From Cupriavidus necator (GTDB lineage: Bacteria > Pseudomonadota > Gammaproteobacteria > Burkholderiales > Burkholderiaceae): a stretch of 32,000 nucleotides of DNA. Shown here in pieces: positions 7,883 through 22,125 of the stretch. Numbering within the stretch: position 1 is the first letter of the stretch; every line of letters begins with the position of its first letter. The stretch is taken from assembly GCF_016127575.1 (NCBI RefSeq), contig NZ_CP066018.1, positions 600,001-632,000 of the forward strand, in the 5' to 3' direction. A program made the translations under genes and the position numbers. The notes under the pieces were generated by a model, which did no database searches, was not told the DNA's origin, and saw only the letters and a list, made by a program, of their open reading frames with translations.

Positions 7883-8054
7883 GCCGCCCCAAGTGGCGCA
7901 CTGTCGACTCGCGAGTTGACCGGGGACTTCCCCGCGCATGCCGGTTTGCGCCGGCAGTGGCTGCGAGTATGCTTTCCTTCATGACGCGGATTCCGGCCGG
8001 CCTGCCATCGCCTCTTGCGTGCAGACGCCAGACCGCCGACTGCGGGGGCAGATC

Positions 8055-9647
8055 ATGCGCAGGCAGCCTCATGACGGATCGGGAAAGGATCGACCTTCCG
8101 CCCTCGACTTCAGGGAGGGCGAGCCGCACTTCAGGCTGCTCGCCGACGGCATCCCTCACATGATCATGACCGCCGATGCGGATGGCCGGATCGATTACTG
8201 CAACCGACGGTGGACGAGCTATACCGGCCTCAGTCTTGAGCAGACTCGGTCCGGCGCCTGGAAATCGGCCGTCCACCCCGAGGACTACGCGCGCAATATC
8301 GGCCACTGGGCAGACGCAGTGGCGAGAGGCTGCGAGTACGAAATCGAATATCGCCTGAAACGGGCATCCGATGGCGCCTACCGATGGCACCTCGAACGCG
8401 GGTCACCATTGAAGGATGCTGATGGCAAGATCGTAAAGTGGCTTGCATCCGGCACCGACATCGAAGCGCTGAAGCAGGCCCAGGCCTCTGCTGAAAGTGC
8501 CAACCATGCGAAGTCGGAGTTCCTGTCAAGCATGAGTCATGAATTGCGCAATCCGCTGAACGCCATCCTTGGCTTCGCGCAGCTGATGGCCTCTGAGGCT
8601 CCGCCTCCGACTGCGTCGCAGCAGGCCAGCATCGACCAGATCCTGAAGGCGGGCTGGCATTTGCTGGAGCTCATCAACGAAGTCCTTGACCTGGCCAGGA
8701 TAGAAGCCGGTCAGGCGTCGCTGTCCCCTGAGCCGGTATCGGTCATCGACACCTTGCACGAGTGCCAGGCAATGCTTGAGCAGCAAGCACTGAAACGCTC
8801 GGTCCGCATGCGGTTTCCCGCAGTCGAACCACCCTGCTTCGTCCGTGCCGACAGGACCCGCTTGAAGCAAATCCTCCTCAACCTGCTTTCCAATGCCATC
8901 AAGTACAACCGGGACCAAGGCTCAGTCGATGTGCAGGTGACGACGACGGGACATCGCGTAGGCGTCAGCGTGCGCGACACTGGAGTAGGGTTGACACCGG
9001 AACGGCTGGCCCAGCTATTCCAGCCGTTCAACCGCCTGGGGCATGAGGCAGGCCCCGTGGAAGGCACCGGCATCGGCCTCGTGGTGGCCAAGCGGCTGGC
9101 CGAGTTGATGGGAGGAACCATCAGCGCCAAAAGCACGCCTGGCGTGGGCAGCGTGTTCCGGGTCGAACTGCCTGCTGCCGCGCCTCCCGCAATGGCTGGC
9201 GAGAGCACGGAGGCCGCCGCACCTGTCCGGTCGCCAATCGAAGCCCCGTCCACGATGCACACCTTGCTGTATGTCGAAGACAACCCCGCCAACCTTAAGC
9301 TCCTGGAGCAACTCCTCGCCCGCCGGGCAGACGTGCATTTGCTGTCGGCGGCCACCGGGATTCTCGGAGTCGAGCTCGCGCGCACTTCGCTGCCCGATGC
9401 GATAGTGATGGATATCCATCTGCCGGACATCAATGGCATCGAAGCACTGGGACGCCTGCGCGAAGACCCGATGACAATGCATATTCCGGTCATCGCGCTC
9501 AGTGCCAATGCCATGCCACGCGACATCGAGCGGGGCATGAAGGCAGGATTCTTCCGGTACCTGACCAAGCCCATCAGGATCCACGAATTCATGGATGCAC
9601 TGAACGCCGCACTGGAACAACCGCGAGGATCAATTGCGCAGGGCTAG
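8055..9647 (+). CDS. Cytoplasmic PAS-domain hybrid sensor histidine kinase (PAS-HisKA-HATPase-REC)
   Basis: H-box SHELRNPLNAILGF, N-box LLSNAIKYN, G-boxes DTGVGL and GTGIGL. C-terminal receiver (LLYVEDNPANL..VMDIHLPDINGIE..LTKPI). No hydrophobic segments. The start is uncertain: ATG 8055 has the better G-rich ribosome-binding site, and ATG 7938 is the longest option. Confidence 0.85.
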   Translation: MRRQPHDGSGKDRPSALDFREGEPHFRLLADGIPHMIMTADADGRIDYCNRRWTSYTGLSLEQTRSGAWKSAVHPEDYARNIGHWADAVARGCEYEIEYRLKRASDGAYRWHLERGSPLKDADGKIVKWLASGTDIEALKQAQASAESANHAKSEFLSSMSHELRNPLNAILGFAQLMASEAPPPTASQQASIDQILKAGWHLLELINEVLDLARIEAGQASLSPEPVSVIDTLHECQAMLEQQALKRSVRMRFPAVEPPCFVRADRTRLKQILLNLLSNAIKYNRDQGSVDVQVTTTGHRVGVSVRDTGVGLTPERLAQLFQPFNRLGHEAGPVEGTGIGLVVAKRLAELMGGTISAKSTPGVGSVFRVELPAAAPPAMAGESTEAAAPVRSPIEAPSTMHTLLYVEDNPANLKLLEQLLARRADVHLLSAATGILGVELARTSLPDAIVMDIHLPDINGIEALGRLREDPMTMHIPVIALSANAMPRDIERGMKAGFFRYLTKPIRIHEFMDALNAALEQPRGSIAQG

Positions 9648-9673: not shown

Positions 9674-10846
9674 ATGATCCACCCATCGGACATCCTGGCT
9701 GCAAAAATCCTGGTCGTTGACGATCTGGAGGCCAATGTCCTGCTGCTCGAAAGGATGCTGCATGCGGCCGGATATACCAGCGTCGAATCAACCACCGATC
9801 CGCGCATGGTTTCCGAGCTTCACGGCAGGAACCACTATGACCTGATCGTGCTGGATCTCCAGATGCCTGGCATGGACGGGTTCGAGGTCATGGAGAATCT
9901 CAAGGTCGTCCAGCCGGACAGCTACCTTCCGGTGATCGTTGTCACCGCCCAACCCGATCACAAACTGCGCGCACTGCAGGCCGGCGCGAAGGACTTTGTC
10001 AGCAAGCCATTCGATCTCGGCGAGGTACTGATGCGGGTGCGGAACATGCTGGAGGTACGCCTGCTGCACAGTGAGTCCTTGCAGTACGGCAAGGAACTCG
10101 AGCGCAAGGTGCAGGAACTGGAAGCGAGCCGGGAGACGATAGTCCGTCAGAGCGATGAGCTCAGGCGCCTTTACGAAAAGCTTGTTTGCGAGCAACAGGT
10201 CACTGAGCGTCTTCTGCTAAACGTGTTGCCAGCTCCGATCGCCGAACGTCTGAAACAGCGTTCCCATCCTTTATCCGCCGGCCCTCCGGACGTCATCGCC
10301 GACAGGTTCGAGTCGGTGTCAGTACTGTTTGCAGATATTGTGCATTTCACCCGCTTCGCTCCCGGCATGAGCCCAGAACTACTAGTGGAGGTACTAAACG
10401 AGATATTTGCCGCCTTTGATGAAATCGCCGACGGCCGGGGACTCGAGAAGATCAAGACAATCGGCGACGCATACATGGCGGCCGCCGGTTTGCCGATACC
10501 GGTGGCGGATCATGCCGTTCGGGCCGCCCATATGGCATTAGACATGATGGAGTCGCTGAGCCGATTCAATCAGCGAAGCGGCTACGCGCTGCGGTTGCGG
10601 ATTGGCATCCATAGCGGGGCCGTCGTAGCCGGGGTGATTGGGAGGCGAAAGTTCATCTATGACTTGTGGGGTGATACCGTGAACATCGCGAGCCGGATGG
10701 AGTCTCAGGGCATAGTCGGCGGCATTCAAGTAACTGACGACACTCGACAGCAACTTGGAAAAACCTTCCTACTCGAAGACCACGGGGTGATTGCAGCAAG
10801 AGGCATCGGAGACGTGCATACATGGCATCTGGTTGGGAGAAACTAG
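9674..10846 (+). CDS. Response-regulator receiver fused to a class III adenylate/guanylate cyclase domain
   Basis: REC domain (KILVVDDLEAN..LDLQMPGMDGFE..SKPF), a coiled-coil linker, then cyclase motifs VSVLFADIVHFT, KTIGDAYMAAAG and GIHSGAVVAGVIG..YDLWGDTVNIASRMES. Confidence 0.9.
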   Translation: MIHPSDILAAKILVVDDLEANVLLLERMLHAAGYTSVESTTDPRMVSELHGRNHYDLIVLDLQMPGMDGFEVMENLKVVQPDSYLPVIVVTAQPDHKLRALQAGAKDFVSKPFDLGEVLMRVRNMLEVRLLHSESLQYGKELERKVQELEASRETIVRQSDELRRLYEKLVCEQQVTERLLLNVLPAPIAERLKQRSHPLSAGPPDVIADRFESVSVLFADIVHFTRFAPGMSPELLVEVLNEIFAAFDEIADGRGLEKIKTIGDAYMAAAGLPIPVADHAVRAAHMALDMMESLSRFNQRSGYALRLRIGIHSGAVVAGVIGRRKFIYDLWGDTVNIASRMESQGIVGGIQVTDDTRQQLGKTFLLEDHGVIAARGIGDVHTWHLVGRN

Positions 10847-11496
10847 ACAGCGACGTCCCTGGGACAGTAAGACAGTCTCGGTCTGGACGTGCTCAGTCAA
10901 GCCAGGACACTATTCAGAAAATCTCCCACACGCGTGGAGACCACGCGTGCGCCCCAACCGACGACGCGAAGCAAACCATTGCCAGGGTACCCATGCCCCC
11001 GAAATTTTGCCCAGCTCACTTAACTTCGATCTTCGTAATGGTAGTGGGCGACGAGCCCAACTTGGGCAGGCACAGCGTCAATAGGCGCCGTTCAAATCGA
11101 GCATCAATGTGCTCGACGACGCATCGGACGAGTCTTAATGGCCGAACTCGAACCGGCCTAAGCATTGAACGCCTGGGCAGCGAGACGCAATTCTGGGCCC
11201 ACGCCAGGAACCCATGTCCGCGGCGCGACGCGAGCGATCTCCCTATCCGTATGACCGCGACGAGAGCAACCGGAGGAAGCTATGCTCTAGTTTTTCCCGT
11301 CCCAAAATGCGCTGCGGTTCCATTTGCAGCAGCGATGCGGATCGTTGCGTTCCTATTTTGGCTGGCCATCCCCCAAAGCGATGGTCTACAGCGACCCGCG
11401 CTACGCGCTTTTGCTAGCGAGAGTGCAGATGCGCCATCTCGCAGTCGGGCGCGAGTCACTCTACACCAGGGTGCCGACATCTGTTGATATGTCGCG

Positions 11497-12225
11497 TTAG
11501 TGCACAGACGTCGCGGGCAGGAGTTGCAAGGTGCCGAATCGGTTGTAAAACATTGAGCCTTCGGGGGCTACTGTAGATTCAACGATCCGGACGCGAGAGC
11601 TGTAAGATTTCGTGCCGACCATCATGGTTTCACCGACTTTCACCTTCACCTCCTTCACGACCAAATGCCAAGCGAAAGCGCCGGCGACGGTTGTGCAGTC
11701 GGGGATGTTAGACGGGACACTCACGCCCTTCAGTCCAAAATTTTGCATGCCACTGCAGTGAGCGCCACTACCTCCAGCATCTACGGTGGCGACGAATGCC
11801 CGAAAAATGCCATCGATGCCGTCATTGGCCAGCGCCAGCCAGTTCTGTGAGGGATGGGCTACGCCGGCGTTCTCCACATACACGCCTAGTGCGCCGGCCC
11901 GGACCACGGCGCTCGCAGCGCCCATCACATGTGCCATGCGCTGCCGACTTCCGCCGGCGTCCGCAAGGAGGACATGAGAGGTATGCCGAGCGATGGCCCG
12001 CATGTCATCGGAGTCGTACCAATAGGTACCGCCACATCGAAAGTCCTCCACAATGCTCGAGTTGTGCCCCTTTTGAAAGTGGATGTGGACGCCCTGGCGG
12101 GTTCGCTGATCCACGAGCACGCCATTGGCAAAGCGATAGTTTGGCGCCTGCTTCTTAATGGCCGCCTTGAATTCGACGAGCGATGACCAGGTACCCGGAA
12201 GGATAAGAACTGCGAGATTTTGCAT
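11497..12225 (-). CDS. Hypothetical protein (242 aa), last gene of the orphan operon
   Basis: Track ORF 11497..12366, trimmed to ATG 12225 (MQNLAVLILPGTWSSL..); the longer N-terminus is an implausible R/P/S/T-rich extension. Coding-like codon usage. No family that I can name with confidence, and no clear Shine-Dalgarno. Confidence 0.55.
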   Translation of the reverse strand: MQNLAVLILPGTWSSLVEFKAAIKKQAPNYRFANGVLVDQRTRQGVHIHFQKGHNSSIVEDFRCGGTYWYDSDDMRAIARHTSHVLLADAGGSRQRMAHVMGAASAVVRAGALGVYVENAGVAHPSQNWLALANDGIDGIFRAFVATVDAGGSGAHCSGMQNFGLKGVSVPSNIPDCTTVAGAFAWHLVVKEVKVKVGETMMVGTKSYSSRVRIVESTVAPEGSMFYNRFGTLQLLPATSVH

Positions 12226-12452
12226 GCAACGAATGGCTTGGAGGTGAATGCGCCGAGGCCGTGACGTCGGCGCGAAGCAGGACCTTCTCGGTCCTATGGG
12301 GTTAAGTGAATCCACGCGATAGTTGTTGGCTTGGCAGCTGCGTGGGCGCGTGGTGGTGCGAGGCATGCGGATCTAATTACAAGCCGATTTCCATTTGATC
12401 CAGTCCGCGCTGCAGGGCATCGGTCAGCCAGCCCATGAACGCACACCATCCG

Positions 12453-12913
12453 TCATGCGAAAGCGCCAGCCCGTCGCTGCCATGGATCAGTCTCCGGCGC
12501 ACTATCGAGCTGCCAGCGCAGCCATCGCCTGATCAGCGTTTCCAACTCGAATGGGACGTCAGTCAAATAGATATACCGTTCTTGGTCTTGCACAATGGTT
12601 TTCAGTCCAGCCGGCAGCCAATGCGCCAGGGCGCGCCCTGCCTGCTCGGCAGTCGGGATGCGCTCGACGTTGCGCAGGATCCCCTGCGTGCGAAGAAATT
12701 GGCGCTCGAGGATTTCGCAACTCACCCTGAGCCGTCGATTCGCCCCATGCAACGGTTCCAGCGGATATTGATGAGCGAGCTTGACCACATCAAAAAGGGG
12801 CGGACGTGCGAGGATATTGGGAATCTCTGCGGGGGTACCACGCAATTGTCGGCTAGATCGAAGGTGCGCCCCCGCGTGAAACCCATTTCTCGGAACACGA
12901 ACTTTTCGGTCAT
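12453..12913 (-). pseudogene. Hypothetical gene split over two reading frames (apparent frameshift)
   Basis: ATG 12913 has a strong ribosome-binding site (GGGGGAGGG) and opens a 63-codon frame that stops at 12722. A second, coding-looking frame (track ORF 12453..12845) overlaps it. Both frames are open across 12722-12845, a region that contains G5 and A5G4 runs. Confidence 0.5.
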
Positions 12914-12941
12914 GGCCCTCCCCCGGCGGGTTCGAGCCGCG

Positions 12942-13265
12942 TTAAATGGCCTCGCGCGTCAGCACGACGCCCTGCGGTTCGTTCTGCGAGCTATGCATGG
13001 TGCGCTTGACGGGGGCCACGACGCTGAGCGCCATGCCGACCAATTGCATGGGGCGAACGAGGTCGCGCTCCACATTGTCCAGCGACGCAATAGTCCGGAA
13101 GGTTGAGCACTGCGCTGGGATGCGTGCATCGAACTCGTCCATGACGATGCGATAGGCGCCGGTGGTCAGGGATTCGCCCAACACATTGTCGATCTCGATC
13201 CGCCCAAGTGTTCGGCAGTATTCCTCCTGGCCGTCTGGAATAAGTTCCACGGTAACGCGTAGCAT
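12942..13265 (-). CDS. Hypothetical protein (107 aa)
   Basis: ATG 13265 lies 5 nt after the HAD-like gene stop, with GGGAG upstream. Coding-like composition. No recognisable motif. Confidence 0.55.
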   Translation of the reverse strand: MLRVTVELIPDGQEEYCRTLGRIEIDNVLGESLTTGAYRIVMDEFDARIPAQCSTFRTIASLDNVERDLVRPMQLVGMALSVVAPVKRTMHSSQNEPQGVVLTREAI

Positions 13266-13270
13266 CGGTT

Positions 13271-13801
13271 TTAGCTCCCGAGCAGGGCTTTAGCGGTCAT
13301 GCGTTGCAGCCGCTGCGCCAGTTCGGACTGCGCAGACGCGCTCGAGAGGCCCAGCACGCCATCCGTCTCGACCAAGTAGTCGCGCAGCTCGGCGGGCCAA
13401 TCCTCGCTGTCGTCATCGACGGCCAGCCAGTGTTCGGCCCGCAGCCCGGCCCGCGCAATGTAGCGTGCGATCTGGGCATACCGCGAGAGCTCGTTGAACC
13501 AACTCGCGTCTACGCGATGAGCGCCTTCATGATGCTGCGCCATTGCCGAATGCCAAGTCGCGCCGATGACACGTGCTTGCAGCGCAGCCGGCAGATAGGC
13601 ACGTGCGCGACTGAAGCTTTTGAGGACCCGAACCCACGACGTAGAAAGGACAATACGGACCTGAGGGTACGGCGCGAGAATTTCCTCGAGAATCGGCGCC
13701 CACATGAACAGCGTTCCAGCCGCGCGAAGCTCGGGGCGCCCGTTCACCAAGTAAGCGGCGTCTGGATGCAAGACACCGTCATAGTCCAAAAACAAAATCA
13801 T
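13271..13801 (-). CDS. Small HAD-superfamily-like protein (motif I DxDGV present)
   Basis: N-terminus MILFLDYDGVLHPD matches HAD motif I. 176 aa, no cap domain evident. First gene of the minus-strand operon. Confidence 0.75.
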   Translation of the reverse strand: MILFLDYDGVLHPDAAYLVNGRPELRAAGTLFMWAPILEEILAPYPQVRIVLSTSWVRVLKSFSRARAYLPAALQARVIGATWHSAMAQHHEGAHRVDASWFNELSRYAQIARYIARAGLRAEHWLAVDDDSEDWPAELRDYLVETDGVLGLSSASAQSELAQRLQRMTAKALLGS

Positions 13802-13878
13802 CGCCTTCTTGGCCTTTGTCTGTTACGCAGTGATGCAGGGCAGCATTGGTCCCACAGGTGCACCTACAAACCATGGCA

Positions 13879-13935
13879 TTATAGATTTATAAACAGTAGA
13901 TGTATATCCAGTAGAGTTGCATGTGTGTAGATTTT
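13879..13935. promoter_or_regulatory. Four phased TAGA(T/G) direct repeats in the divergent HAD-operon/XRE promoter region
   Basis: TAGAT at 13882, 13897 and 13928, and TAGAG at 13912 (spacing 15, 15, 16 nt). The extended units TAGATTTATAAA, TAGATGTATATC and TAGATTTTTAGC lie in an AT-rich stretch 30-85 nt upstream of the XRE start. Confidence 0.4.
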
Positions 13936-13963
13936 TAGCCTTGGTTTGCGCACTCTGCGCCCC

Positions 13964-14200
13964 ATGTCAAAGAGTGCTGAAAAGACCTACGCGCGGCTTA
14001 GGGTTGCCTCCAACCTACGGAAGGCAAGGGAGGCTGCGGGCCTATCTCAGGAAGACTTAGCCATCAAGGCAGGATTCCATCGGACCTATGTCAGTCAGAT
14101 CGAGCGCGCGGTGAACAACGCAACAATTGACAATATCTGCAGGCTTGCGGAATTTCTCGGGGTCGATGTTCACGAGTTGTTCATCGACCCTCACCAGTAG
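13964..14200 (+). CDS. XRE-family helix-turn-helix transcriptional regulator (78 aa)
   Basis: LRKAREAAGLSQEDLAIKAGFHRTYVSQIERAVNNATIDNICRLAEFLGV is a canonical Cro/C1-type HTH. ATG 13964 is preferred over the TTG at 13946. Confidence 0.85.
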   Translation: MSKSAEKTYARLRVASNLRKAREAAGLSQEDLAIKAGFHRTYVSQIERAVNNATIDNICRLAEFLGVDVHELFIDPHQ

Positions 14201-15044
14201 TAGTTCCCACTTCGTTCAGCGCCTGGTGTACCGCGGCCCTTTGGTTCGGTTCCGCCACTTTCGCGTTGCCAGGGCAAACCGGCAAACAGTACGTCCCTGC
14301 GACGCTCCTCCTTTTTCAACAGTTCGCCCTTCGCTTTATCTGCTCCCCGACCTCTTTTGGCGAGAATTCAAGGGTTGCAGGGTACGGTGCGGCGGCACCG
14401 TCTCTTGGTAAGGGTCTTCGTCAACAAACTAAAGCAGGGGTGTTGGATGCGCTCGCATGACGGTATGCTCATGCCTGTCTACGGACCAGGCAGCGCGTCA
14501 GCATGGCTCGAATTCCCCAGCTGGATGGCTGTATTGGCAGTGTCCGATAGCGGGCGTGTGGAACTGAGCAACTGCTCCGGTGCACTGTCATAGCATCCGG
14601 TGCGTTCGCCTGAACTTGCCGCTTCGCCAACGCGACCAGCGGCTGCTCGCTGATTCGGTGCCGGGCTATGCATTGCGGCAGTTCAGTGAGGAAGTGGCGA
14701 AGATGCGAATACGGTCCGGCTCGGAGAGTTGGCAGGATTCATCAGCGTATATTCCCACTCAGATCGGACTCCTGACTCCGCCTGGAGTTCTTCCCAGCCG
14801 CCCTTGTGGATGGGTATCTTGCAAATGATACCCTTGGCACGATGTGCTTCCAGTTCATTAAACGAGATTATCATGGCCTGCGCACTTGGCGGTTCTGGGG
14901 AGGAATCGAAGCTCGTCTTCAGGCTCAGGGTGAACACAGATACCTACTAGCCTGATTCGTGAAGTGGGCGAGCGCTCTGCAATTGGATGGGCATGCAATC
15001 GAGCTACGGTTCTCCAAGGACAGCGTACAAGTATGTCGTGGGAC

Positions 15045-15536
15045 CTAGCTTTGAGAATCCCCCCCAACGATGCGGGCAATTTTTTGCTTGCCGGCAAGTA
15101 GCTTATTGACTCGAGCGGCGCGCGCACGCTCCTGCTCCAACTCCTTCTCGGCCTTCACTCGGGCAAAATAGTGAGCAGTAGCTTCTGCGCGAAGCTTCCG
15201 AACTTCAACCTGAAGTTCGAGTTTTTCAGCGCGCAATCGTTGAATGATCTCTGTGTGCGTAGTTGGAAGCGAAGGCTTTTCCTTCGCTTCTCTTATTTTC
15301 TCTCTAACTACTGGATATCGACAGTTTTTATCTAGTCCAATTAATGTTCTAGACCGCCCCGCCTCGACGGCAACGTTACTGATCGTGATCTTCATCTTCC
15401 CGGCAGCTAGCCGATCTTTCATCTTCTTAGTTTTTGGCTTCCCGATCTGCAGCCGCGCCAGCGCATCTAGAAATTCCTGCTCGATGGAGTCTCCCGAATA
15501 TATCGCTTTTCTTTTTAACGACATTTGACTCACCAA
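15045..15536 (-). CDS. Small HTH plus coiled-coil protein co-transcribed downstream of the recombinase trio
   Basis: 163-aa ORF starting 21 nt after the third recombinase stop (AAGGA ribosome-binding site before GTG 15536; ATG 15524 is an alternative). HTH-like ITISNVAVEAGRSRTLIGL is followed by a heptad-rich, charged C-terminal half. Same low GC as the trio. Confidence 0.6.
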   Translation of the reverse strand: MVSQMSLKRKAIYSGDSIEQEFLDALARLQIGKPKTKKMKDRLAAGKMKITISNVAVEAGRSRTLIGLDKNCRYPVVREKIREAKEKPSLPTTHTEIIQRLRAEKLELQVEVRKLRAEATAHYFARVKAEKELEQERARAARVNKLLAGKQKIARIVGGDSQS

Positions 15537-15557
15537 ATCCTTTATGTGTTTTTTGTC

Positions 15558-17651
15558 CTATAGCTCACTGACATTTACACCGAGTTTTCGCAGTATCTTC
15601 TTCGCCTGCTCTGCGCGCTCAAGGATCACCCTGAAACCATTCATTTTACCCACCGCTTCCGCCTCACGAATTGCGATTTGGCTTTTTGTAAAGCGCTCCG
15701 ACCAAAATGCTATGTGACTCTTATCAATAATCGCACATGCACATCCCGCACATACGCTTGAATCTCGCGTGGCAAAATTCGGATATCGCCGGAACCATAA
15801 TGAGGTATTTGAAATCTCATGACACCTCATTTCGCTCGTTTTTACCGGACAGCATGTTGCATACTCCGTAAAAAAGAATTGAAGCTCTTGATTGTCAGCC
15901 CACTCGTCGACGATCCGCCACCTCTCAGAAGTTGGTAATTCGCCTAAATCGTCTTTAAATTCAGCGATCGAATCACCCAAAGTTTGGGCCATTCTACCCG
16001 CGGCAATACTATCTCCTGTTGCCATCTCATAAATCAGTAAATTTCTTCTTTGCCTAGAAACCGAATCCAGGGCTTCAACTTGGAGTGGATTATTCCCTAT
16101 ATAACCGCCCTCCGTCACCGCCATATTGAGGTGATGAAACTGCATTTGTATTGCACCAAGAAGGCTCGGATTTGCCGCCAGGGTAAAGCTGGCCCAGGTC
16201 TTTCGAAGCATATGAGAGCTAAAGATCTTTCCTTTTGACTCGCGCCAAGGGATCAGCTCGCCGTCGGATACTTTTTGCCGCGATTCGTTCGGCAGAGCCG
16301 TCAGGTTTACCCAGTCAACAATAAAATCCCTCATTGCTTTCCTGAGGGAGTCCGACAAAATGGGCTTCAGCGTCCCCGAAGGATGAGAGAGGGAGGCATG
16401 GCCGCGCCACTGAAGTATTAGCCGATCGGTGACCGCGTGATCACGCCAAAGCGAGAAAAGACGGTTAAGAACCTGAAGCGCACGTATTGCAGGCGGTATT
16501 TCATTGCTTCCTTCCGGGCGCATCCCAAGCACCCAGTCAACTTCGATGGGGGGCCCCTCCTTAGTCTTTGAGAGCAACGATCGGACAAGAAACCACTCGT
16601 ATAGACCACGTGAGCTGGATTCCAAACGGACATTACTTGGTAGCCCAGACACAGGATCAATGCCTCCCTTTAGCCCACAAATTTCTGAAATGCGCATGCC
16701 CGACATTCCTTGAACAATGATGGCGCACGCACCCAGCAAATCATATGCAAGCATTCGTGTAGTCCTATGTGCTGCACTCTCTCCATACATGTCACTTGGC
16801 AACTCGGCCAGAGGTCGATGCCATGGCTCACTCGAATCTTTTCCACTCCCAAACTCGAATCGTCGCAGGTCGCGTCGCATTCTCTTGATTCGCTGCGCGC
16901 GCCCTTCATTTGGATGTTGCGCAAGGATCGCCACAAGCCGAAGTATGTCTTCAGCCGGCTGCGACAGAAACCAGAGCGCTTCATTGAACATCGGCACAGC
17001 AACTTCATCTGGTATGGGCTTTATCCACCCTACGCTTTGTCCGGCGCATTCGTCAGCGATACTAGCCAATGATTTTCGAAAAAATGGATCTATTGAAATG
17101 GATTCAATTCCCATCTGCGCCATAGGAATACGTTGACGCCACAAGTTAGCAAGGGCTTCAAGGGCACGTCTTGCAACCGACACAGTGATTTTTTCCTCGT
17201 CTGTACAGTCAAGCATGAATTGGGGTAATTCATCTATATATCTGGAGACGACGCCAGCTGTCAGCTGAGATGGTACGTGGTAGCCATTTATGGCCATCCA
17301 CGACAATAACCACTTGAAAGATTGCTGGTGGGCGGAAACACCTCCAACCATCGTCGGCACTCCTTCGGCCGGCATTTTAAGGAGAGTCAAAAGGAGCGTC
17401 TTCGACCAATGTAAGCGTGCAGCGTGGTGTGGGTCAGTGAGCTTACTCCCGTCAAAGAGTTCTATACTCCAATTGATGGTGCTTGCGGTTTTTTTAAGGC
17501 CAGGCGTAGTCGGCGTAAACTCCCACCTAACATCCTTAAATTGACTATGCTCACTGAGCCAATAATCTTCTAGCTCCTCCTTATTTCTCTGAAACAGCGC
17601 TTTTGGCTCGCGCGAACTAGATCGATTAAGTTTGGCGGAGTTGCGCTGCAT
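15558..17651 (-). CDS. Tyrosine recombinase/integrase, third gene of the trio (RitC position)
   Basis: Track ORF 15558..17774, trimmed to ATG 17651, 5 nt after the preceding stop. Catalytic signatures GMRISEICGL (Arg), SHMLRKTWASF (HxxR) and HHLNMAVTEGGYIG (His..Tyr). Confidence 0.85.
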   Translation of the reverse strand: MQRNSAKLNRSSSREPKALFQRNKEELEDYWLSEHSQFKDVRWEFTPTTPGLKKTASTINWSIELFDGSKLTDPHHAARLHWSKTLLLTLLKMPAEGVPTMVGGVSAHQQSFKWLLSWMAINGYHVPSQLTAGVVSRYIDELPQFMLDCTDEEKITVSVARRALEALANLWRQRIPMAQMGIESISIDPFFRKSLASIADECAGQSVGWIKPIPDEVAVPMFNEALWFLSQPAEDILRLVAILAQHPNEGRAQRIKRMRRDLRRFEFGSGKDSSEPWHRPLAELPSDMYGESAAHRTTRMLAYDLLGACAIIVQGMSGMRISEICGLKGGIDPVSGLPSNVRLESSSRGLYEWFLVRSLLSKTKEGPPIEVDWVLGMRPEGSNEIPPAIRALQVLNRLFSLWRDHAVTDRLILQWRGHASLSHPSGTLKPILSDSLRKAMRDFIVDWVNLTALPNESRQKVSDGELIPWRESKGKIFSSHMLRKTWASFTLAANPSLLGAIQMQFHHLNMAVTEGGYIGNNPLQVEALDSVSRQRRNLLIYEMATGDSIAAGRMAQTLGDSIAEFKDDLGELPTSERWRIVDEWADNQELQFFFTEYATCCPVKTSEMRCHEISNTSLWFRRYPNFATRDSSVCAGCACAIIDKSHIAFWSERFTKSQIAIREAEAVGKMNGFRVILERAEQAKKILRKLGVNVSEL

Positions 17652-21202: not shown

Positions 21203-21610
21203 TCATCGTGAGGATCTCAGCGGAGACGTTTCACTCCACATTTCGTGCTCGCAACCGCGGTAGGGGTTGAGCGAGACATCGAACGGGATGTCGGGCGATG
21301 CATTGCGCGTCAGGACCGAACGGGCGCGCTCGATATGGACTTCCGTGCGCAGCGGCGGCAGCGGCGCTGCCTCCGGCGACGGTGCGGCTTCGGTGGTACG
21401 CGGCGCCTCTTCTGGTGCACTGCTCCAGCCATCGTCGAACGCTTCACGCAGGTCGCGCTCGAAACGCCCCTGCAGGTTGCTCACGGCGCCTCGGCCCTTG
21501 CGCGCCACGGGCGGCCGCGGGCCTGCCTGCGGCGCGAGTGCGTCGGGGTCGGCATCGGGCCGCGTCGGGCGGCTGCTGACAGGCTTGGGTTTCGGCGGGG
21601 GGCGCTCCAT
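21203..21610 (-). pseudogene. 5-prime fragment of a PA0069-type radical SAM protein gene, truncated at the Fe-S cluster motif
   Basis: ..[49 protein letters not shown] matches this family up to the first Cys/His of the CxxxCxxC region. The sequence then reads [13 protein letters not shown]-stop, and GC drops at about 21243. Start is ATG 21610, or GTG 21625 overlapping the lrp stop. Confidence 0.75.
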
Positions 21611-21621
21611 GCTGGCCTTGG

Positions 21622-22125
21622 TCACACTGCCTGGCTCTTCTCCTCGACGGAAATCGCCAGCGTCTCCTTGATCTCTTCCATCACCACATAGCTCTTCGAC
21701 TGCGCTGCGCCGGGCAGCTGCAGCAGGATGTCGCCCAGCAGCCGGCGGTATTCACCGATCTCGCGGATGCGCGCCTTGATCAGGTAGTCGAAATCGCCCG
21801 ATACCAGGTGACATTCCAGCACTTCCGGGATACGCAGCACCTCGCGCCGGAACTGCTCGAACATATTGCCCGACTTGTTGCCCAGCGAGATCTCGACGAA
21901 CACCAGCAGCGCGCTGCCCAGCAGCGCCGGGTTCAGCCGTGCGTAGTAGCCCATGATGACACCATCGCGCTCCAGGCGCTTGACGCGCTCGATGCAGGGC
22001 GTGATGGTCAGCCCGACCGCTTCGGCCAGGTCCTTCATCGACATCCGGCCGTCGCTCTGCAGCGCCGTCAGGATCTTGCGGTCGAGCCGGTCGAGGGTGC
22101 GCATGGGCTGGCGACTCGTTCTCAT
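21622..22125 (-). CDS. lrp: Lrp/AsnC-family transcriptional regulator (DadR-like, divergent from dadA)
   Basis: Track ORF trimmed to ATG 22125 (AGGAAAA ribosome-binding site). [45 protein letters not shown] plus a RAM/AsnC_trans domain. Confidence 0.9.

Follow-up and report, generated by a model that had tools for sequence, protein, structure and literature searches.

A horizontally mobile HAD_SAK_2 and DUF4261-family gene cassette of Cupriavidus necator: a candidate XRE-controlled module for protection against nucleic-acid-targeting attack

Introduction

HAD_SAK_2 is described in Pfam as the HAD phosphatase domain of the "Swiss Army Knife" RNA-repair proteins. For the immunity proteins of Imm-SuFu family 2, Zhang et al. 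(2012; PMC3482391) list DUF2314 (Imm34) as a fusion partner. The locus considered here lies in a 32,000-nucleotide (nt) stretch of Cupriavidus necator, called the window (NCBI RefSeq assembly GCF_016127575.1, contig NZ_CP066018.1, positions 600,001 to 632,000 of the forward strand), and combines a gene of the first family with one that may be related to the second. It is a cassette of four co-oriented genes transcribed divergently from a gene for a small XRE-family regulator: gene 1 encodes a HAD_SAK_2 phosphatase, gene 2 a 107-amino-acid (aa) protein (p107), gene 3 is a pseudogene, and gene 4 encodes a member of a family that carries DUF4261. The best-supported reading, possible rather than probable, is of an XRE-controlled module, carried by mobile elements, that would guard against attack on nucleic acids and is partly decayed in this strain.

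Organization and control region of the cassette

The features of the cassette, in window coordinates, are as follows.

13946..14200, plus strand: XRE-family helix-turn-helix (HTH) regulator, 84 aa from TTG 13946 or 78 aa from ATG 13964, divergent from the operon
13802..13945, no strand assigned: divergent control region (promoter scan and repeats in the sequence)
13271..13801, minus strand: gene 1, stand-alone HAD_SAK_2 phosphatase, 176 aa (PF18143)
12942..13265, minus strand: gene 2 (p107), 107 aa, narrow family, no known domain
12377..12913, minus strand: gene 3, pseudogene, 211 aa in its intact form (aligned in three frames with intact homologues)
11497..12225, minus strand: gene 4, 242 aa, DUF4261-containing family (profile search)
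11150..14413, no strand assigned: discrete transferable module, the only stretch homologous to a 93%-identical copy (L024) that has other surroundings

The initial annotation of the window described four co-oriented minus-strand genes divergent from an XRE gene, with gaps of 5 nt between genes 1 and 2 and 28 nt between genes 2 and 3; the open reading frame (ORF) map and the sequence agree. The intermediate GC content that it reported is also found, at 0.59-0.61 for the cassette, compared with 0.63-0.69 for the core and 0.48-0.52 for the block of recombinase genes. Its suggestion that the first product is of HAD_SAK type is borne out by a PF18143 match of 110 bits. It took the other three products to be orphans, which holds for p107 and gene 3, neither of which has a known domain, but not for gene 4, a member of the DUF4261 family. 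The frameshift that it saw in the third gene is real but part of greater damage, namely two frameshifts and a deletion of about 29 codons, with the true end of the gene at 12377.

The XRE protein matches Pfam HTH_3 (E 2.3e-15) and the PADLOC model for the "control protein" of restriction-modification systems (E 7.7e-19); the ORF map and a Pfam scan place no restriction-modification gene beside it in the cassette. Toward the operon, the promoter scan finds a sigma-70-like promoter, TATACA-17-TATAAT (13906..13878, minus strand; 10 of 12 matches). The AT-rich control region, 13802..13945, contains TAGA(T/G) repeats every ~15-16 nt, which are putative operators of the XRE protein. Rfam recognizes no RNA family in 10800-15600, and Pfam matches none of the small flanking ORFs (14200-15045 and 10822-11487). 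Directly past the XRE stop codon, at 14208-14290, two adjacent segments (~45 bp and ~34 bp) are each inverted relative to the L024 copy. A "51-bp palindrome" considered for the sequence after the XRE gene was rejected; its folding z score is 0.2 relative to shuffled sequence, and comparison of the copies reveals the short inverted segments instead.

Genomic settings, mobility, and selection

The five-gene unit has a patchy distribution, with presence in eight of the 45 Cupriavidus species sampled, and is found in seven other species-level genomes of the genus. Among the windows scanned, this is the only one with the cassette. Its linkage is kept in at least three settings, which supports the protective reading: an 86.4-kb island in the present genome, a block with integrase and KfrA genes, and chromosome 2 of strain RAL3.

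In the present genome the cassette is cargo of the island and lies beside the island's recombinase module. The mobile element that the initial annotation placed next to the cassette is indeed mobile DNA, but it is this module of the island containing the cassette rather than a separate neighbour. The island splits a radical S-adenosylmethionine (SAM) gene, of which residues 1-128 are encoded at window 21242-21625 and residues 115-411 at G000:C1:533942-534832, 86.4 kb to the left; the overlap of residues 115-128 suggests that ~42 bp were duplicated at the junctions. At the left end, just inside the island (G000:C1:534972-536039, plus strand), an intact radical-SAM paralogue of 402 aa (55% identity to the orthologue of the split gene) adjoins the orphaned 3' portion of that gene and may have come with the island as a replacement copy. 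Catabolic genes are found elsewhere on the island, and in the window the cassette is surrounded by genes for signalling and catabolism rather than by a defence island.

The second setting is a block with the order tyrosine integrase, KfrA_N protein, XRE, and the four cassette genes, here called the L015 type, in which seven species-level genomes agree at 99.9-100% over 14 kb or more (L015, G071:C1:2719000-2737000, with L131-L134; L016-L021). Either a large element has spread very recently or the species labels overstate the distance between these genomes. Further upstream, genomes G071 and G371 are still 99.78% identical for the next 40 kb. Compared with the window, the L015-type products are 83% (HAD), 79% (p107), 54% (gene 3), and 49% (gene 4) identical. 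One copy (L019, G386:C1:1659000-1677000) has eight single-G deletions relative to the others, which leave its gene 4 in three pieces; these are most likely homopolymer sequencing errors, not decay.

In the third setting, chromosome 2 of RAL3 (CP158804, L024), the copy is 93% identical to that of the window. By blastn, only window positions 11141-12485 and 12657-14413 are homologous to this locus; the surroundings of the RAL3 cassette are unrelated to those in the window, and there is no integrase within 10 kb. At the start of the L024 homology (~11150), window positions 11139-11158 (minus strand) form a tRNA T-arm-like hairpin, GCCGG-TTCGAGT-TCGGC, possibly the scar of an old attachment site at the module edge; no tRNA gene is detected by ARAGORN anywhere in the window. 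On its XRE side the RAL3 copy has a 20-nt tandem repeat, followed by an HTH regulator gene and a DUF6630 gene (L024 7510-8016 and 8780-8850).

Remnant copies with gene 3 intact occur on plasmids pMTS3 (NZ_AP025174, L107) and pMTS1 (NZ_AP025172, L108) of Cupriavidus sp. P-10. Both are truncated by insertion sequences (IS); the HAD gene is absent, as are the 5' half of p107 and nearly the whole of gene 4, and p107 is cut at the same point in the two. The pMTS3 remnant sits between a DUF3962 gene and a gene for a large ATP-binding protein on one side and ISNCY/IS256 transposases on the other.

Relative to the L015 type, the ratio of nonsynonymous to synonymous substitution rates (dN/dS) is 0.10 for HAD, 0.21 for p107, and 0.18 for gene 4, values that clearly point to purifying selection on all three; ratios this low against a diverged copy indicate that the cassette genes are real coding genes. 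Against the closest copy (L024) the ratios are 0.35-0.52, on few changes. In that comparison the HAD gene is 100% identical at the DNA level, p107 96%, and gene 4 95%, and the XRE protein has 100% amino-acid identity with 6 synonymous changes in its gene; by these gene-wise identities, the history of the cassette is a mosaic one.

The HAD_SAK_2 phosphatase and its relatives

Gene 1 matches PF18143 over profile positions 1-138 of 139 (E 1.5e-31; cut-off 27.5 bits), and the match is seen again in the genome search. Its motifs LDYDGV, STSW, and AVDDD lie in columns that are conserved in at least 90% of 22 Burkholderiales homologues; judged by these motifs, the enzyme is predicted to be catalytically intact. 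Gene 1 has a weak match among PHROGs (phrog_1818) and no match in a sequence search of the PDB; tblastn finds none in 50,697 phage records.

Homologues with 35-55% identity are present in 26 of 401 sampled Burkholderiales genomes, this genome included. At the Burkholderiales loci examined, distant HAD homologues have no p107, gene 3, or gene 4 nearby, and neither do distant DUF4261 homologues. The chromosomal HAD homologues adjoin genes for Metallophos and Rv2179c-like exonuclease proteins. Orthologues with 40-58% identity are carried by small, often mobilizable plasmids of Pseudomonas, Comamonas, Chitinibacter, Deefgea, and Rhodoferax (pZM22-2, Chitinibacter unnamed3, pLM8P2, p14057B, Deefgea unnamed1, pHS87a, and Rhodoferax unnamed2; loci L113, L114, L124-L126, L128, and L129). 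There the HAD gene usually follows a small HTH gene and lies beside relaxase/Mob genes or the partition region (ParA). The plasmid operons hold genes for a 3'-5' exonuclease, a metallophosphoesterase, a HAD-IA protein, or an AAA ATPase, and they often adjoin restriction-modification, abortive infection (Abi), or toxin-antitoxin genes. The HTH and HAD_SAK_2 pair on plasmids is a candidate establishment or counter-defence module; to our knowledge, none of these plasmid operons has been characterized so far. The partners of HAD on plasmids and chromosomes fit the annotation as a nucleic-acid end-processing enzyme and point to a role in the establishment of mobile elements or in conflict.

The hypothetical gene that follows HAD on pZM22-2 was considered as a relative of p107 and rejected, since the two are unrelated on comparison. 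The present genome has a second HAD_SAK_2 gene on chromosome 2 (G000:C2:1334097-1334501; L047:7918-8514, minus strand; 78 bits), in a core-like context and with no cassette partner; its first motif reads LDVPG, so that the second catalytic Asp is missing. It was rejected as a second cassette because of this other context and the degenerate motif.

The DUF4261-family protein and its likeness to immunity proteins

Homologues of gene 4 keep the start MQN, and a 289-aa extended form is not conserved. A first sequence search gave eight matches; a profile built from these retrieves 702 representative clusters, 458 of them at E <=1e-10 over the full length, and defines a family of ~240 aa. In sampled members of this family PF14080 (DUF4261) is found at the corresponding position, and two members exceed the gathering score of 27 bits (39.8 and 31.1-32.7 bits). 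Gene 4 itself has no PF14080 match, and its close homologues match below the threshold (best E 0.011, in five of nine; 18.8 bits for the L015 orthologue). Two family members, P0139 and P0141, carry a C-terminal DUF2314 (Imm34) domain, and another, P0052, is a tandem duplication with two copies; gene 4 itself encodes a single domain. Distant DUF4261 members are lone insertions of lower GC content at third codon positions (GC3), a pattern seen with orphan immunity genes. One such gene (L043, G515:C1:4839000-4856000, positions 8049-8795) has a GC3 of 0.63, compared with 0.85 for its neighbours, and lies between apparent sucD and sucA genes in a tricarboxylic acid cycle operon.

AlphaFold2 with a 121-sequence alignment gave a model of gene 4 with a predicted local distance difference test score (pLDDT) of 93.5 and a predicted template modelling score (pTM) of 0.91; with a nine-sequence alignment the pLDDT was 53. 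The protein is modelled as a two-lobed alpha/beta structure. With an exhaustive aligner, the best fold match of residues 117-242 is a bacterial SuFu homologue (3k5j; Z 6.5, root-mean-square deviation 3.4, 103 residues aligned), and residues 4-128 match the CdiI immunity protein 4g6v_B (Z 6.5); the model matches human and fly SuFu at Z 4.6-5.2. Fold matches with Z <8 may reflect a common alpha/beta arrangement. Foldseek finds nothing in the PDB below E 1e-3 for the model, and the PDB sequence search with gene 4 gives no match. The C-terminal domain of ZipA (Foldseek E 0.011), considered as a relative, was judged to be a generic alpha/beta match.

Three weak-to-moderate lines of evidence thus suggest that gene 4 encodes an immunity-type binder resembling SuFu family 2, a likeness rather than demonstrated membership. 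The equation of DUF4261 with Imm-SuFu family 2 is our own proposal and is not stated in the excerpts of Zhang et al. (2012; PMC3482391).

Two lineage-restricted partners

Among 5.8 billion proteins, p107 is represented by 24 clusters, all with at least 53% identity, and the gene 3 family by 18; in both, all named members are from Cupriavidus. The mean column identity of p107 is 78%. No match to p107 is found in Pfam, NCBIfam, PADLOC, PHROGs, or the PDB. The ESM Atlas gave sub-threshold leads only for p107 and gene 3, and IMG/VR holds no relatives of either.

The intact orthologue of gene 3 encodes 211 aa (L015:7617-8252). In the window a change of 1 nt shifts the frame near codon 12 (~12880), ~29 codons of the variable middle part are missing in frame, and a second frameshift lies near codons 170-174 (~12495); the end of the gene was placed by three-frame alignment. 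Gene 3 is a pseudogene in this genome. The L024 copy is broken otherwise, by two stops, one at codon 8 and one late in the gene, together with a scrambled stretch and the loss of ~39 codons, and two further C. necator copies (P0022 and P0026) look truncated or shifted. Gene 3 has no Pfam or PDB match, and no toxin, nuclease, or trafficking domain is recognized in it. The assignment of its N-terminus to the DUF2384/Xre_MbcA_ParS_C antitoxin domain was rejected; the hidden Markov model of that family misses intact gene 3, and hhalign finds nothing.

Proposed function and alternative explanations

On the protective reading, the cassette would be a self-contained accessory unit of ~3.3 kb, horizontally mobile and carried as cargo by integrative elements in Cupriavidus. 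The small, controller-type XRE repressor and the operon would share one divergent promoter region, and this arrangement suggests that the operon is probably under tight control timed to entry. From the families of the two recognizable products we infer substrates, partners, and a protective role: the HAD_SAK_2 phosphatase might act on the phosphate ends that a nuclease or signalling system, in an attack, leaves on RNA, DNA, or nucleotides, the DUF4261 protein might bind and neutralize a protein effector, and the two together would shield the element or its host, with p107 and gene 3 as putative lineage-specific partners. In a bolder form, which we regard as improbable, the intact cassette is an undescribed multi-component conflict system that couples nucleic-acid end healing to an inhibitor of the attacking effector, with p107 and the 211-aa protein as new folds that act, for example, as sensor or adaptor.

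Several observations weigh against protection as the function. The SuFu and CdiI fold matches of gene 4 stand at Z 6.5, a level open to a common alpha/beta arrangement, and hhalign of gene 4 with SUFU (PF05076), against a self-made template of four sequences that is too small to judge the relation fairly, gives a probability of 0.1%. No toxin, RHS, CdiA, or secretion gene is recognized in the cassette or its flanks. Pfam, NCBIfam, PADLOC, and PHROGs show no domain for RNA end processing (ligase, kinase, or phosphoesterase) in the operon, and such partners are present at other HAD loci only; since the cassette yields no ligase, kinase, or nuclease domain, the case for repair comes from the HAD protein. 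PADLOC, NCBIfam, and PHROGs recognize no system in the cassette, and the products of all four operon genes lack NCBIfam as well as PADLOC matches. With gene 3 inactivated both here and in the closest copies, the module may have ceased to act as a unit. The four-gene linkage is also confined to a narrow set of Cupriavidus genomes, and the other neighbours of distant HAD and DUF4261 homologues indicate a narrow, lineage-specific assembly. The initial annotation had proposed a conflict module or a prophage remnant and looked to the neighbourhoods of homologues to decide. Within Cupriavidus the linkage of the five genes is conserved, and with the mobile DNA and one immunity-like product it keeps the idea of a conflict module alive; beyond that set the neighbours differ, and PADLOC names no known defence system. 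A prophage remnant is left without support, as the HAD protein has no relatives in the phage records and a weak PHROG match, and IMG/VR contains nothing related to p107 or gene 3.

Genes 3 and 4 might instead be an intracellular, addiction-type toxin-immunity pair to which HAD and p107 are accessory, the toxin having decayed here and left the immunity gene orphaned. The order of the genes, a putative toxin gene followed by an immunity-like one, would suit such a pair, as would the resemblance of gene 4 to an immunity protein, the faster divergence of the two genes between lineages (identities of 54% and 49%, compared with 83% in HAD and 79% in p107), and the independent breakage of gene 3 in the window and L024, perhaps also in P0022 and P0026, while gene 4 remains intact under purifying selection. 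Yet the product of gene 3 has no recognizable toxin, nuclease, or trafficking domain, and the two P-10 plasmid copies keep gene 3 intact with gene 4 deleted, although the HAD gene and presumably the operon promoter have gone as well. The frameshifts in gene 4 of G386 look like sequencing errors; they are therefore neutral on this point and were set aside. We consider a toxin-immunity pair unlikely. A new anti-phage system of the abortive-infection kind, serving the host, in which the XRE protein represses a harmful effector operon until infection, appears distinctly unlikely: the layout of a controller-like XRE regulator plus operon agrees with it, as do the position of this accessory DNA beside recombinases, its patchy presence among the species sampled, and the pMTS3 remnant next to DUF3962 and ATP-binding-protein genes with IS elements nearby, but the four operon genes find no match among the PADLOC models, no effector of the nuclease, NTPase, TIR, SIR2, or membrane type is recognized, the window neighbours are those of a signalling and catabolic region, and gene 3 is inactivated in several strains.

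The state of gene 3, with three lesions here and different ones in the closest copy, could also mean that the whole cassette is hitch-hiking cargo in decay, a leftover of an older element now inside the island and with no present function in this strain. The T-arm-like scar at the module edge, the truncation of the P-10 copies by IS elements, and the higher dN/dS relative to the closest copy, few as the changes are, would fit. We nevertheless find decay of the whole cassette quite improbable, given that, outside the IS-disrupted remnants, all lineages examined have HAD, p107, and gene 4 intact, with low dN/dS over a long divergence, that HAD and the XRE protein have not one amino-acid change relative to L024, and that a strong promoter-like site is kept. 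An ordinary metabolic phosphatase operon is highly improbable. HAD enzymes are mostly small-molecule phosphatases, and the island has catabolic genes elsewhere; this HAD protein, however, is cap-less and belongs to a nucleic-acid-associated family, its partners in other genomes are exonucleases and phosphoesterases on plasmids, the operon contains no transporter or pathway enzyme, and its distribution is patchy and mobile.

Implications

If the protective reading is true, the cassette would bring together, in a single transferable unit under regulation, RNA/DNA end repair and polymorphic-toxin immunity proteins, two themes of bacterial conflict that have been separate until now. It would also offer the first functional handle on stand-alone HAD_SAK_2 and DUF4261, two widespread uncharacterized families. 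The recurrence of HAD_SAK_2 genes beside relaxase genes on small plasmids suggests a role in establishment or counter-defence. The practical lesson for the industrial chassis C. necator H16 is a modest one, namely that the locus is cargo of the island, includes one dead gene, and can probably be dispensed with.

Comparison with described systems

The component families of the cassette are known by name but uncharacterized, and their combination is not described in the libraries searched. Gene 1 resembles HAD_SAK_2 proteins in its full-length profile match, the DxDGV nucleophile, the S/T and acidic DD motifs, and the minimal, cap-less size; in addition, its relatives adjoin phosphoesterases and 3'-5' exonucleases. 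It differs from the "Swiss Army Knife" repair proteins in that it stands alone, not within a multidomain repair enzyme, and in its partners, two lineage-restricted orphans and a DUF4261 protein.

Gene 4 differs from Imm-SuFu family 2 in that no toxin gene or secretion system adjoins it and in that its own sequence falls below the Pfam cut-off for DUF4261; an operon with a HAD phosphatase is not described for these immunity genes in the excerpts of PMC3482391. The likeness to family 2 consists of the Imm34 fusions and of the tandem form, which recalls a polyimmunity protein. SuFu and CdiI are also the top fold matches of gene 4, and members of its family occur as lone inserted genes.

In the plasmid HAD_SAK_2 operons the downstream genes are for exonuclease, metallophosphoesterase, HAD-IA, or restriction proteins and never p107, gene 3, or gene 4. 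They share with the cassette an orthologous HAD gene (up to 58% identity), in several cases a small HTH gene directly upstream, and a location within the accessory or transfer-proximal region of mobile DNA.

Compared with the C proteins of restriction-modification systems, the XRE protein has no restriction or methylase gene in its cassette, and operator binding and control of timing are putative here. It is nonetheless like them, and like the XRE repressors of mobile-element modules, in being a small HTH_3 protein with a strong "control protein" match, in its divergent transcription, and in the repeats of the promoter region that it shares with the operon.

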